Below are positions 9,001 to 12,902 of a stretch of DNA of 17,246 bases, piece by piece. The position numbers were made by a program. Source of the DNA: a virus (lineage: Duplodnaviria > Heunggongvirae > Uroviricota > Caudoviricetes); IMG/VR virus record IMGVR_UViG_2526164630_000028, one strand, 5' to 3'. Within the stretch, counting starts at the first letter, position 1; each line of letters begins with the position of its first letter.

Positions 9001-12000
9001 AACAGCCAGCAACCACAATGAACGTCGCCACCATCCACATAGCACCGAGAAGCCTCAATGCAGAGAAAATCAACTCAGCCACGATTTACTCTCCCCCAAA
9101 TAAAAAGGCCTGCGATTACCAGCAGGCCTGTTATTAGCTCAGTGATGTAGATGGTCATCTTTTAACTCCATATACCGCCAATACCCGTTTCATCGCTGCA
9201 CTCTGGCGACACTCCTTAAAAATCAGGTTCGTGCTCACCGTTCCTTCCCGTTCTTCCCTGGTAGCAAACCGGTAATACACCGTTCGCCAGACCTTACCAT
9301 CAATGATCAGGATTCCTGCCCGCGCCATTTTAGCCGCAGCCTGATTTATGCTGGTTACGGTTGCGCCTGTTACCGCGGAAACGTCCTGTGCACAGAAGTT
9401 CTTATGCGTCCCGAGGTAATGAATAATTGCCTCTTTGCCCGTCATACTCTTGCTCCTTTCAGTCCGAACTTAGCTTTAATTTCTGCGATCTTCGCCAGAG
9501 CCTGTGCACGATTTAGAGGTCTGCCGCCCATGACAGGAAGTTGTTTTACTGGTTCAGGGATCGCCTCACCACGGTTAATTCTCGCAGTCATATGGACAAG
9601 CTCATCTGCGGCCTTACGGCGTAATTCCGCATCAGTAAGCGCATTGGCCCGCATGTTCTGATACAGGTTGGTAACCAGCCAGTAGTGCGCGTTTGATTTC
9701 CACGGATAAGACTCCGCATCCGGATACAGGCCTCGCTTCCGGCAATACTCGTAAACCATATCAACCAGCTCGCTGACGTTTGGCAGTCCGGCGATAACGG
9801 ATGCTTCTTCCCGGCACCATGCAACAAACTGCCCGGGTGATGGCAGAAATGGTCGATTCTGCCGACGGGCTACGCGCATTCCTGCGTTAACCTGTTCCAT
9901 TGTGGTGATCCCGTTTTCCCGGAAAGCCAGAACCCACTGGCGGCGGATTTCGTTCAGTTCGTTCTGGTCACGATTAGCCATGCTCGCCGGGAAAGTTGCC
10001 AGTAACTGGCTGAACACACCGTTGATGATCTGCGCTACCTGCTGTACCTGCGGCTTTTCGTCGTACTGTTCCGGCATGTTGTTGGCGATCCGACGCATCT
10101 GCTCACGGTCAAAGTTAACCATCTGTGCGGCGATGTTTTTCATAGATCCACCCCGTAAATCCAGTCTGTGTTTGTCAGGTCGAGTTTTGGTTTGCTGGCT
10201 GTCACAACTGCCTGTTGCTTGTTACGGTTGATTTCGAGCTGGGTCCACTTGTCGCGGAGTTTGGCCGGGCTAAGCACGTTACCGGACCAGAAGCTGTCCT
10301 GGCATGCCCATCGGAACAGCACGCACATGTCGCGGTGGTTACGTCCGTCACGTTCTCGCATCAGGCGGATATCGTTAGCCCACCCAGCAAAATTCGGTTT
10401 TCTGGCTGATGGCGCGATGGTCTTCACCATGTCAAACATCCACTCTGCGGCGGTCAGGTCTTCTGCTGTTCCCCACTTGCTGCCGCTCTGAATTGCAGCA
10501 TCCGGTTTAACCACAGAAAGATCGTTTTCTGGCTGGTCAGAGGATTCGCCAGAATTCTCGGACGAATAATCTTTTCTTTTTCTTTTGTAATAGTGTCTTT
10601 TGTGTCCCCCTGTTTTGAGGGATAGCAATCCCCCAATTTGAGGGATGTTTTATCCCTCGTTTTAGGGGATTTTCCCTCGTTTTGAGGGATACACCATTCT
10701 GAGATGTTTTTATTTGGTCCAAACATGCCGCCTTGCTGCTTGATAATATTCATTCTGACGAGTTCTAACTTGGCTTCATTGCACCGTTTGACGGGTAACT
10801 TTGTAATCTCGCTAAGTTGAGAATCGGTGATTCTGTCCATTGGTTTATTCCACCCATAGGTTTTACGCAGAATGGCAAGCAGCACTTTAAACTGTCGCTT
10901 GGTCAGATCTGCGCCTGAATAAGCCTCAAGCAGCATATTTGATAGTCTGGCGTAACCATCATCGAGATCTGCCACATTACGCTCCTGTCCGGCAAAGTTA
11001 CCTCTGCCGAAGTTGAGTATTTTTGCTGTATTTGTCATAATGACTCCTGTTGATAGATCCAGTAATGACCTCAGAATTCCATCTGGATTTGTTCAGAACG
11101 CTCGGTTGCCGCCGGGCGTTTTTTATTGGTGAGTCCATCAAGCGCATACTTAAATGAACCGCCCCGGAAATCCTGGAGACTAAACTCCCTGAGAAAGAGG
11201 TAAACAGGATGACTAAAAATACTCGTTTTTCCCCCGAAGTCCGTCAGCGGGCGATTCGTATGGTTCTGGAAAGTCAGGATGAATATGACTCACAGTGGGC
11301 GGCAATTTGTTCCATTGCCCCAAAGATTGGCTGTACGCCGGAGACTCTGCGTGTCTGGGTTCGCCAGCATGAGCGGGATACCGGGAGTGGTGATGGTGGA
11401 CTCACCACCGCTGAACGTCAGCGTCTGAAAGAGCTGGAACGTGAAAATCGTGAACTGCGCCGCAGTAACGATATCCTTCGCCAGGCTTCCGCTTATTTTG
11501 CGAAGGCGGAGTTCGACCGCCTCTGGAAAAAATAATGCCGCTGCTGGATAAGCTGCGTGAGCAGTACGGGGTCGGACCGGTATGCAGTGAACTGCATATT
11601 GCCCCGTCAACGTATTACCACTGTCAGCAACAGCGACATCATCCTGATAAACGCAGTGCCCGTGCTCAGCGCGATGACTGGCTGAAGAGAGAGATACAGC
11701 GCGTATACGATGAAAATCATCAGGTGTACGGTGTGCGTAAAGTCTGGCGCCAGTTGTTACGCGAAGGTATCAGGGTGGCCAGATGCACTGTGGCACGTCT
11801 CATGGCAGTTATGGGACTTGCCGGTGTTCTCCGGGGTAAAAAGGTCCGTACTACCGTCAGCCGGAAAGCCGTTGCCGCATGCGACCGCGTAAACCGTCAG
11901 TTCGTGGCAGAACGTCCAGACCAGTTGTGGGTGGCTGATTTTACCTGGGTAAGCACATGGCAGGGCTTCGTTTATGTGGCGTTCATCATTGATGTGTTCG

Positions 12001-12902
12001 CCGGATACATCGTGGGATGGCAGGTCTCATCATCCATGGAAACAACATTCGTGCTGGATGCACTGGAGCAGGCGTTGTGGGCCCGTCGGCCGTCCGGCAC
12101 AATCCATCACAGTGATAAAGGTTCTCAGTATGTATCGCTGGCCTACACGCAGCGGCTTAAGGAAGCCGGATTACTGGCATCAACAGGGAGTACTGGCGAC
12201 TCGTATGACAACGCGATGGCGGAGAGCATCAATGGTCTTTACAAAGCGGAGGTAATACACCGTAAGAGCTGGAAAAACCGTGCAGAAGTGGAACTGGCCA
12301 CACTCACGTGGGTGGACTGGTATAACAATCGACGATTGCTGGAAAGGCTGGGCCATATTCCTCCGGCAGAAGCAGAAAAAGCTTATTATGCTTCCATCGG
12401 AAATAATGATCTGGCAGCCTGAGTTCACAGATAAAATACTCTCCAGGAAACCCGGGGCGGTTCAGTTTACCTCTTTCTCAGGGAGTTTAGTCTCCAGGAT
12501 TCCCGGGGCGGTTCAAAAGAGCGGTGTTACTTATGCAGTTGTTTTTTTGTTGCTTGGGAAGGGCTTTATTTCTTCCGCATAAACGCTTCCATCAGCGTTT
12601 ATAGTTAAAAAAATCTTTCGGCCTGCATGAAGGGCCTTGTTGATCGCGCTTTGATATACACCGAGATCTTTAGCCGTCTTGGTTTGACCAAAGCGCATTG
12701 CATAATCTTTCAGGGTTATGCGTTGTTCCATACAACCTCCTTAGTACATGCAATCATTATCACCGCCAGAGGTAAAATAGTCAACACGCACGGTGTTAGA
12801 TATTTATTCCTTGCGGTGATAGATTTAACGTATGAGCGCAAAAAAGAAACCGTTAACACAAGAGCAGCTTGAGGACGCACGTCGCCTTAAAGCTATTTAT
12901 GA

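Follow-up and report, generated by a model that had tools for sequence, protein, structure and literature searches.

Insertions of IS629/IS1203 elements and deletions promoted by IEE are known from EHEC prophages, and of the IS629 copies of O157, 62% are found in prophages (PMC3271280). The iee gene, reported to be present in O103:H2 strains, promotes the loss of DNA next to an IS (PMC9397093), and a "sloppy" strand transfer model exists for flanking deletions associated with the IS3 family and IEE (bioRxiv 10.1101/2023.06.07.543989). In the nested IS-in-IS structures of pC1-057 (O157:H7), O80:H26 EC-107 and O103:H2 FWSEC0007, the right terminus of a full element adjoins an inverted left-end fragment of another copy. 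Stx2a-converting phages and the prophage of E. coli O103:H2 strain 129 have an intact nutR-tR1-cII module.

The window, which is the whole 17,246-nt stretch of viral DNA analysed here, is identical in sequence to these modules towards cro and boxA and again in the tail of cII, but lacks 304 bp between them and has 1361 bp of IS material instead (Table 1). The IS material includes the 1310-bp element of the EHEC prophages, with orfA and orfB, the -1 frameshift pseudoknot and TG...CA ends, and its right terminus adjoins an inverted left-end fragment as in the nested structures. We read the region, with a probability of roughly three in four, as having arisen by two or more IS629-type insertions, together with one IS-associated deletion, within the pR operon of a lambda-immunity prophage of O103:H2-like E. 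coli. Like the IEE-promoted ones, the deletion begins exactly at the end of an IS, but unlike the flanking deletions described for IS629 and IEE it ends inside a second, inverted IS, of which a 51-nt terminal stub is left. The junction of IRR and stub in the window also lacks the microhomology expected at the joint of IEE-promoted deletions (0 nt), while that of O145 RM9154 has 3 nt.

Table 1. Features of the cII-cro region in the window
Feature	Position	Strand	Remarks
cII 3' remnant, codons 72-98 (FKYALDGLTNKKRPAATERSEQIQMEF) and stop	11071..11154	-	contiguous; ~99% identical to intact cII alleles
AAA (TTT of cII codon 72)	11152..11154	.	putative left copy of 3-bp target duplication; right copy probably lost in the deletion
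IS3-family element, IS629/IS1203 type, intact, 1310 bp	11155..12464	+	ORFs, profile and Rfam matches
IRL	11155..11178		inverted end, TG...CA
orfA	11209..11535		108 aa
ALIL frameshift pseudoknot	11490..11606		Rfam RF01497, 120.9 bits (gathering score 50)
A6 run	11527..11532		inside ALIL pseudoknot
orfB	11535..12422		295 aa; overlaps orfA at 11535
IRR	12441..12464		inverted end, TG...CA
Stub, putative positions 1-51 of a second IS629-type copy, inverted	12465..12515	-	51-nt inverted repeat, 98% complementary
nutR boxA (CGCTCTTT)	12516..12523	-	broken directly after its eighth base; just past cro stop
cro, lambda-type, intact	12531..12731	-	ORF; 96-97% identity to lambda cro
pR-like promoter upstream of cro	12784..12756	-	promoter scan, TTGACT-17-GATAAT

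The full-length element and its place in cII

The length and coordinates of the element agree exactly with a preliminary description of this DNA, and its assignment there to the IS629 type is supported; the IS629 reference also measures 1310 bp. OrfB matches NCBIfam NF033516 (IS3 family transposase) with 312.5 bits against a cutoff of 160, and OrfA aligns to positions 1-86 of this profile, giving a DDE transposase encoded by orfA and orfB in the 0 and -1 frames; the pseudoknot and its A6 run form the programmed -1 frameshift signal. The terminal inverted repeats are imperfect and of the 5'-TG...CA-3' form, with TGAACCGCCCCGG(A/G)... at 11155 and the reverse complement at 12464. Six further E. 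coli genomes, of the O103:H2/O45:H2 type, have copies that are 100% identical to the element over its full length, and it differs from an O157 copy, which PGAP names as IS1203 family, at 57 of 1310 nt (95.6% identity). The element is a common E. coli insertion sequence, an IS629-type member of the IS3 family.

With an identity of 99.5%, the left flank (10960..11154) runs unbroken into an intact cII as far as the TTT of codon 72, and the cII remnant is likewise contiguous with the intact alleles of E. coli 5CRE51 and Stx2a phage EH0505, at about 99%. The full element therefore sits in cII at codon 72 and not in boxA, where it had first been placed. What is left of the gene is 27 codons and the stop, rather than the roughly 20 codons of the earlier count, and codons 1-71 are absent.

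Only one near-identical prophage was found, that of E. coli O103:H2 strain 129, which matches window positions 12516..17246 at full coverage and 99.9% over 4731 bp, with one indel in 3185 nt of flank. There too an IS is present, oriented as in the window; its right side adjoins cII at ...GGGCTTTT, and the junctions of the window and of strain 129 overlap by exactly 3 nt (alignment columns 389-391). Complementary junctions with such an overlap indicate one insertion with a TTT duplication, and comparison of the two prophages shows an insertion in codon 72 common to both. The window itself keeps only the left copy of the duplication, the TTT being implied by the complementary junction of strain 129; sister insertions of this IS family have 3-bp AAT duplications (SJ7, where it was verified, and pC1-057).

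Between the IS copies of the two prophages there are 14 differences, all clustered at positions 386-695, with none at positions 1-385 or 696-1310. A common insertion would demand gene conversion or copy replacement to explain these differences. This IS family recurrently targets cII, with the SJ7 insertion 12 bp away and another in CEA106S, and a separate strike on the very same three bases is improbable though conceivable.

The inverted stub and the 304-bp loss

The preliminary description saw an inverted copy of the left terminus after the element, which is indeed present, but it is 51 nt long and not 46 nt. The five bases GTTTA, taken then for a gap, are IS positions 47-51, and the inner end of the stub is joined directly to the IRR terminus with zero spacer, while its outer tip is joined to boxA. 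A complete terminal inverted repeat is contained in these 51 nt, and three IR tips are observed in the window against 0 expected from shuffled sequences. The stub matches the resident left end at 50 of 51 positions, the sole mismatch being IS position 14, which is G in the stub and A in the resident element; on an O103:H2 plasmid, a full G14 copy has a left end that agrees with the stub throughout. Since the stub differs from the resident A14 and matches other O103:H2 copies, it would be the relic of a second, inverted IS copy once inserted at boxA, in line with the earlier suggestion that it derives from another copy. The A14 of the resident element is also found in the strain 129 copy and so is older than the split between the two prophages. 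As a marker private to the resident copy A14 was rejected, the O157 copy also having it.

In intact relatives boxA continues into ATCAATCTG and then into the boxB hairpin, an arrangement typical of a lambdoid nutR of which the window keeps boxA alone; the boxB of the relatives (ACCGC-CGACAAC-GCGGT) has no match in the window with up to 3 mismatches allowed. All of boxA, boxB, the hairpin and the N-terminal part of cII are kept, at 98.8% identity, in strain 129 and in over 50 Stx2a phages. Alignment to strain 129 and to an Stx2a phage puts the two window flanks, the cII remnant and boxA, 304 bp apart, so they are not contiguous in uninterrupted relatives as a simple insertion would have them. 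This comparison, which had been proposed for mapping the deletion, sets its endpoints at cII codon 72 and boxA, and the nutR boxB, the tR1-region hairpin and most of cII are lost from the window, as first described. By the strain 129 junction, the missing 304 bp formerly lay between the right end of the IS and boxA, where the stub now is. The deletion is associated with the IS, and not a separate neighbouring event as had been thought.

Proposed history and alternative explanations

The first step, shown by comparison with strain 129, which has it in common, was the entry of an A14 copy into cII codon 72 with duplication of TTT/AAA. In a second step a G14 copy, oppositely oriented, may have entered where the nutR boxA has its 3' edge, with its left tip against AAAGAGCGG. 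In the third step, the outcome of which is visible in the window, the stretch from the right terminus of the first copy to position 52 of the second was lost. With it went one copy of TTT, about 1.26 kb of the second IS and 304 bp of phage DNA, made up of the nutR spacer, boxB, the hairpin and, from cII, the ribosome-binding site with codons 1-71.

Two routes could lead to this loss. In the first, (a), a third copy would nest in the second at position 51, oriented as the first, and the two direct copies would then recombine homologously. The clustering of the differences from the strain 129 IS speaks for this route, as does the full identity of the window IS to a copy at another locus, as recombination between copies would give. 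In the second, (b), cleavage at the right end of the first copy would free a 3'-OH that attacks its own strand within the nearby copy, a product then fixed by replication; this corresponds to the "sloppy" transfer of the model for IS3-family and IEE-associated flanking deletions. Route (b) is favoured by a junction exactly at the IRR terminus, by the reported presence of iee in O103:H2 strains and by strain 129 itself, which has its own terminus-exact adjacent deletion, reaching into terminase. The two routes yield exactly the same sequence, which does not separate them.

The AAA triplets at 11152..11154 and 12516..12518 had been read as a 3-bp target duplication. Both triplets exist, but by the strain 129 junction they belong to two different target sites, and their match is probably coincidental. 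They would be a true duplication if a microhomology deletion between the TTTA present at both deletion endpoints of the intact sequence had first fused boxA to cII codon 72, giving CGCTCTTTAAGTATGCG, and the IS with its 51-nt stub had then transposed as a unit into TTT by means of its two left ends, the stub having a complete terminal inverted repeat. This order of events is improbable: it needs an independent insertion in the same trinucleotide and orientation as in the near-identical strain 129 prophage, as well as an unobserved earlier deletion and an earlier origin of the composite, which is absent elsewhere in 5,426 genomes, and the sole analogous composite, that of RM9154, has no flanking duplication (GTA versus GTT).

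A somewhat smaller chance is given to a stub copied from the left end of the resident IS, by intramolecular transposition of the duplicative-inversion type or by template switching in copy-out replication, with no second insertion at boxA. It would take fewer events, strand-switch models exist for IEE, and the junction of tip and boxA resembles a genuine left-end strand-transfer junction. The G14 of the stub against an A14 that is older than the event speaks against such copying, a later point change in 51 nt being improbable where 3185 nt of flank hold a single difference, and the RM9154 stub is likewise unlike its resident left end. Least probable is a transposase-independent deletion, in which inverted copies 0.3 kb apart fold into a cruciform or hairpin that loses its centre through replication slippage or processing by SbcCD, since, for all the instability of long inverted repeats with a short spacer in E. 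coli and the 3-nt microhomology (TCA) at the RM9154 junction, one endpoint lies exactly at the terminal nucleotide of IRR in the window, RM9154 and EC-107, and the window junction has no microhomology.

Within the preferred history of two insertions and an IS-associated deletion, it is conceivable, though on balance doubtful, that composites of a full IS, an inverted left-end stub and a truncated neighbour are fossils of one aberrant reaction, in which a right end synapses with a nearby inverted left end and is strand-transferred into it, deleting the intervening DNA. The composites covered would be those of the window (51 nt), RM9154 (55 nt, beside a truncated Rha gene) and EC-107 (254 nt, beside a truncated P gene). 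If true, they would be in vivo evidence for "sloppy strand transfer", which has been proposed but never documented for flanking deletions of the IS3 family and IEE. These few natural terminus-exact IS-to-IS fusions could help to test models of IS-associated deletion.

Comparable composites and probable consequences for the prophage

The search of 5,426 complete E. coli genomes covered both junctions and the joint of IRR and stub. The exact structure of IS and 51-nt stub is absent from these genomes, as are both cII halves around the window IS and a full inverted copy at boxA, and a comparable contiguous joint was found only in O145 RM9154. Exact-pattern scans of metagenome and GTDB contigs (IRR-N(4-34)-inverted-IRL; two flank junctions) gave 0 matches in all four. 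Neither search thus turned up an intermediate, which weighs against the preferred history. The clean nested insertion of pC1-057 shows a 154-nt stub and an AAT duplication, with the interrupted copy preserved in two halves, whereas the window has only a 51-nt half, with cII on the other side and without the 3-bp duplication of a nested insertion.

Transcripts from pR would pass cro and boxA and then enter 1.36 kb of IS in antisense without boxB. As N cannot modify pR transcripts that lack boxB, expression of O, P and Q should be strongly polar, and cII is presumably dead. The composite would account for the disabling of the rightward early operon of the prophage (cII, nutR boxB and read-through to O, P and Q) and offers a lineage marker for O103:H2-type strains. 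Possible frameshifts in cI and O fall at A-runs, at 12903..12908 and about 10576..10585 respectively. The locus is a case of ordinary IS-driven decay of a lambda-like prophage, within known IS biology, and holds no new element or system.

A target duplication should be read from triplets that match on both sides of an IS composite only when an uninterrupted relative is compared. The chance of identical flank triplets is 1/64 if they are random, and higher for a target that is preferentially AT. The stubs of 154 and 254 nt, found by a search able to detect stubs up to roughly 560 nt, led us to reject the idea that a transposase footprint favours lengths of 51-55 nt. The best matches of the first whole-region search, in O157 strains, come from another prophage remnant, whose IS lies upstream of cI, and the left-arm match in O145:H28 RM12761 is also a different prophage, with the IS in O.

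Insertion element and inverted terminal fragment

The element between O and cro is an IS629/IS1203-type member of the IS3 family. This identity and its coordinates had been proposed in a preliminary description and are borne out by the two ORFs, by the ALIL frameshift pseudoknot, by the match of OrfB to the NCBIfam IS3 family transposase model (312.5 bits, cutoff 160) and by 100% identity over all 1310 bp to copies in an OmpA-family gene of six O103:H2/O45:H2-type genomes. The O157 copy named IS1203 family by PGAP differs from it at 57 positions.

Coordinates of the features of the prophage
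Feature	Position	Strand	Basis or remark
P	10143..9442	-	
O	11038..10140	-	
cII remnant, codons 72-98 and stop	11071..11154	-	comparison with 5CRE51, EH0505
IS3-family element	11155..12464 (1310 bp)		between O and cro; termini TGAACCGCCCCGG...
orfA	11209..11535	+	ORF call
ALIL frameshift pseudoknot	11490..11606		Rfam, 120.9 bits
orfB	11535..12422	+	ORF call
cro	12731..12531	-	
pR	12784..12756	-	promoter scan
cI	from 12832	+	N and cIII further right

An inverted copy of the IS left end, the stub, begins at the first base past the IS right terminus and is 51 nt long (12465..12515), with 50 of 51 positions matching by repeat search and direct comparison. The 5-bp spacer proposed before it is absent; its GTTTA corresponds to IS positions 47-51. 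The AAA trinucleotides described on each side are present (11152..11154 and 12516..12518), and the stub is followed on the right by CGCTCTTT (boxA), the cro stop codon and cro. The sole mismatch lies at IS position 14, which is G (G14) in the stub and A (A14) in the resident left end. The resident IS of O103:H2 strain 129 also has A14, so A14 predates the split of the two prophages, and full-length G14 copies matching the stub exactly occur in O103:H2, for example on a FWSEC0007 plasmid. Because of these identical copies and the older resident A14, the stub is best read as the surviving left tip of a second IS copy, which would have inserted inverted at the boxA edge.

The same arrangement, in which an inverted left-end fragment directly follows the right terminus of a complete IS629-type element, is seen at three other loci. 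The fragment has 154 nt in pC1-057 of O157:H7 (locus L014, 1660..1813), where the insertion is cleanly nested, with both halves of the host copy and an AAT duplication. It has 254 nt in O80:H26 EC-107 (L013, 1660..1913), followed by a truncated P gene, and 55 nt in O145 RM9154 (L009, 2501..2614), followed by a truncated Rha-family gene, with 3-nt microhomology at the joint and no flanking duplication. A preferred stub length of 51-55 nt was dropped after the 154- and 254-nt fragments were found.

The cII junction and the lost DNA

Many E. coli prophages match the left flank of the IS (10960..11154, 195 nt) at 99.5% identity, in one unbroken piece that ends at the IS and is annotated in them as cII and a replication gene. 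Intact cII in E. coli 5CRE51 and in the Stx2a phage EH0505 reads ...AGCAGGGCTTTTAAGTATGCGCTTGATGG..., and the window flank starts at TTTAAGTATGCG and is contiguous with intact cII from there, which places the IS left end in cII codon 72 (TTT). On the other side, of 5,426 complete E. coli genomes only strain 129 matches 12516..17246 over its full length, in a single piece with 99.9% identity; the runner-up reaches 75% coverage and 97% identity. A 1-A indel in cI is the sole difference from strain 129 in 3185 nt.

In strain 129, an IS in the same orientation adjoins cII. Reading from cro, this strain has boxA CGCTCTTTATCAATCTG, a boxB hairpin (ACCGC-CGACAAC-GCGGT), a strong hairpin ACTCATCGAAAGATGAGT (z = -3.9) and cII codons 1-72, whose last bases are ...GGGCTTTT; IS right-end sequence comes next. 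The cII halves of strain 129 and the window share exactly TTT (columns 389-391 of the alignment of the cII-boxA region), and a 3-bp duplication is typical of this IS type, being AAT in SJ7 and in pC1-057. The simplest reading of these sequences is a single ancestral insertion in cII, after which each lineage would have lost different DNA: strain 129 everything left of the IS up to the terminase gene, by a terminus-exact adjacent deletion, and the window the DNA on the right. In strain 129 the right terminus of the IS is separated from cII by a 24-nt tandem repeat of the IS right tip (CTCCAGGAAACCCGGGGCGGTTCA; L003, 3086..3109), which looks like what remains of a direct nested insertion after collapse by recombination.

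Compared with strain 129 and more than 50 Stx2a-converting phages, which carry this region at 98.8% identity, the window lacks 304 bp (alignment columns 85-388). The missing stretch spans the nutR spacer with boxB, the hairpin, and the start of cII from its ribosome-binding site through codon 71, and the second copy of TTT has gone as well. A boxB-like match was sought across the window and none was found. Relatives that naturally lack cII or boxB here had been named as grounds for refuting the preliminary description; the related phages do have these elements, so it passes that check.

Origin of the deletion

Two routes could lead from the inverted second copy to the deletion. In one, a third copy would nest at position 51 of the inverted copy, oriented like the cII copy, and the two direct copies would then recombine in a RecA-type reaction with loss of the intervening DNA. 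Nesting is common in these genomes, and the 14 differences between the window and strain 129 elements all fall in a patch at positions 386-695, which, with the identity to the copy at another locus, is as copy-to-copy recombination would give. In the other, the right end of the cII copy would be cleaved and its 3'-OH joined to a site within the neighbouring copy on the same strand, the deletion then being fixed by replication; such a 'sloppy' strand transfer is discussed for IS629 and the IS-excision enhancer protein IEE (bioRxiv 10.1101/2023.06.07.543989). The iee gene is reported in O103:H2 strains and promotes deletion of IS-flanking regions (PMC9397093). One-ended transfer is favoured by the terminus-exact joint, by the comparable deletion of strain 129 and by the smaller number of events. 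The evidence leans both ways; both inferred routes yield exactly the observed sequence, which does not discriminate between them. Intermediate structures were found neither in the 5,426 genomes nor in exact-pattern scans of metagenome and GTDB contigs.

The preliminary description was largely correct as an observation, and its structural history, in which IS and stub are inserted in boxA next to a deletion, is less likely and needs revising. It calls for a mobile composite, which is found nowhere else among the same genomes, for a preceding deletion that is unobserved, and for an independent same-orientation insertion at the same trinucleotide in a prophage whose remaining sequence shows a single-base difference in 3 kb. 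A caveat is that cII is hit repeatedly by this IS family, at several independent sites: in SJ7 (L006, 3690..3710 and 5010..5020) and 99E2750 the element lies 12 bp from the window site, and in CEA106S (L007) it lies elsewhere in the gene, which may be a hotspot for this family in lambdoid prophages. The favoured history, with an ancestral cII insertion, needs only that two target sites happen to share AAA.

Consequences and gene content

The window is a lambdoid prophage with the rightward operon on the minus strand. From lambda biology, its pR is predicted still to drive cro, and the transcript would meet boxA without boxB and then run antisense through 1.36 kb of IS sequence, so right-arm N-dependent antitermination should be crippled, as should O, P and Q expression; cII is predicted to be inactive. 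The earlier functional reading, that the right-arm antitermination site and cII are destroyed, was correct: boxB, the hairpin and cII codons 1-71 are missing. One A/T is lost from a cI run (12903..12908) relative to strain 129 and from an O run (about 10576..10585) relative to 5CRE51, each with a frameshift, which could be genuine decay or homopolymer sequencing error. Given the nutR/cII damage, and with these frameshifts if they are real, the prophage would be defective. What is seen here is prophage decay of the ordinary IS629-type kind, and the natural IS-to-IS fusion joints form a set of minor value.

A promoter-like site (11013..11041) and a strong terminator-like hairpin (11095..11122) lie on the plus strand, antisense to the cII tail, in a position like that of the lambda oop RNA unit, and survive intact although the IS left end is only 30 nt away. 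The regulatory region 15090..15230 is mosaic, with lambda-type operators and cro, and its nutL has GGCTCTTTAA and then GCGCTGACAAAGCGC, which we take to be a P22-type boxB; the GACAA core of its loop is also found in nutR boxB of relatives. Between cI and the pL region, a position occupied by rexAB in lambda, two genes (13591..14897) encode a 180-aa hypothetical protein and a 258-aa DUF1828 protein; strain 129 has both genes too, and they may be exclusion or defence cargo. The ORF at 1600..2559 (+) in the nin/Q region, whose counterpart in a matching O145:H28 prophage is annotated as a lipid A deacylase LpxR family protein, is likely a moron. A lambda cIII thermoregulator element (Rfam, 88.5 bits) is located at 16783..16841 (+).
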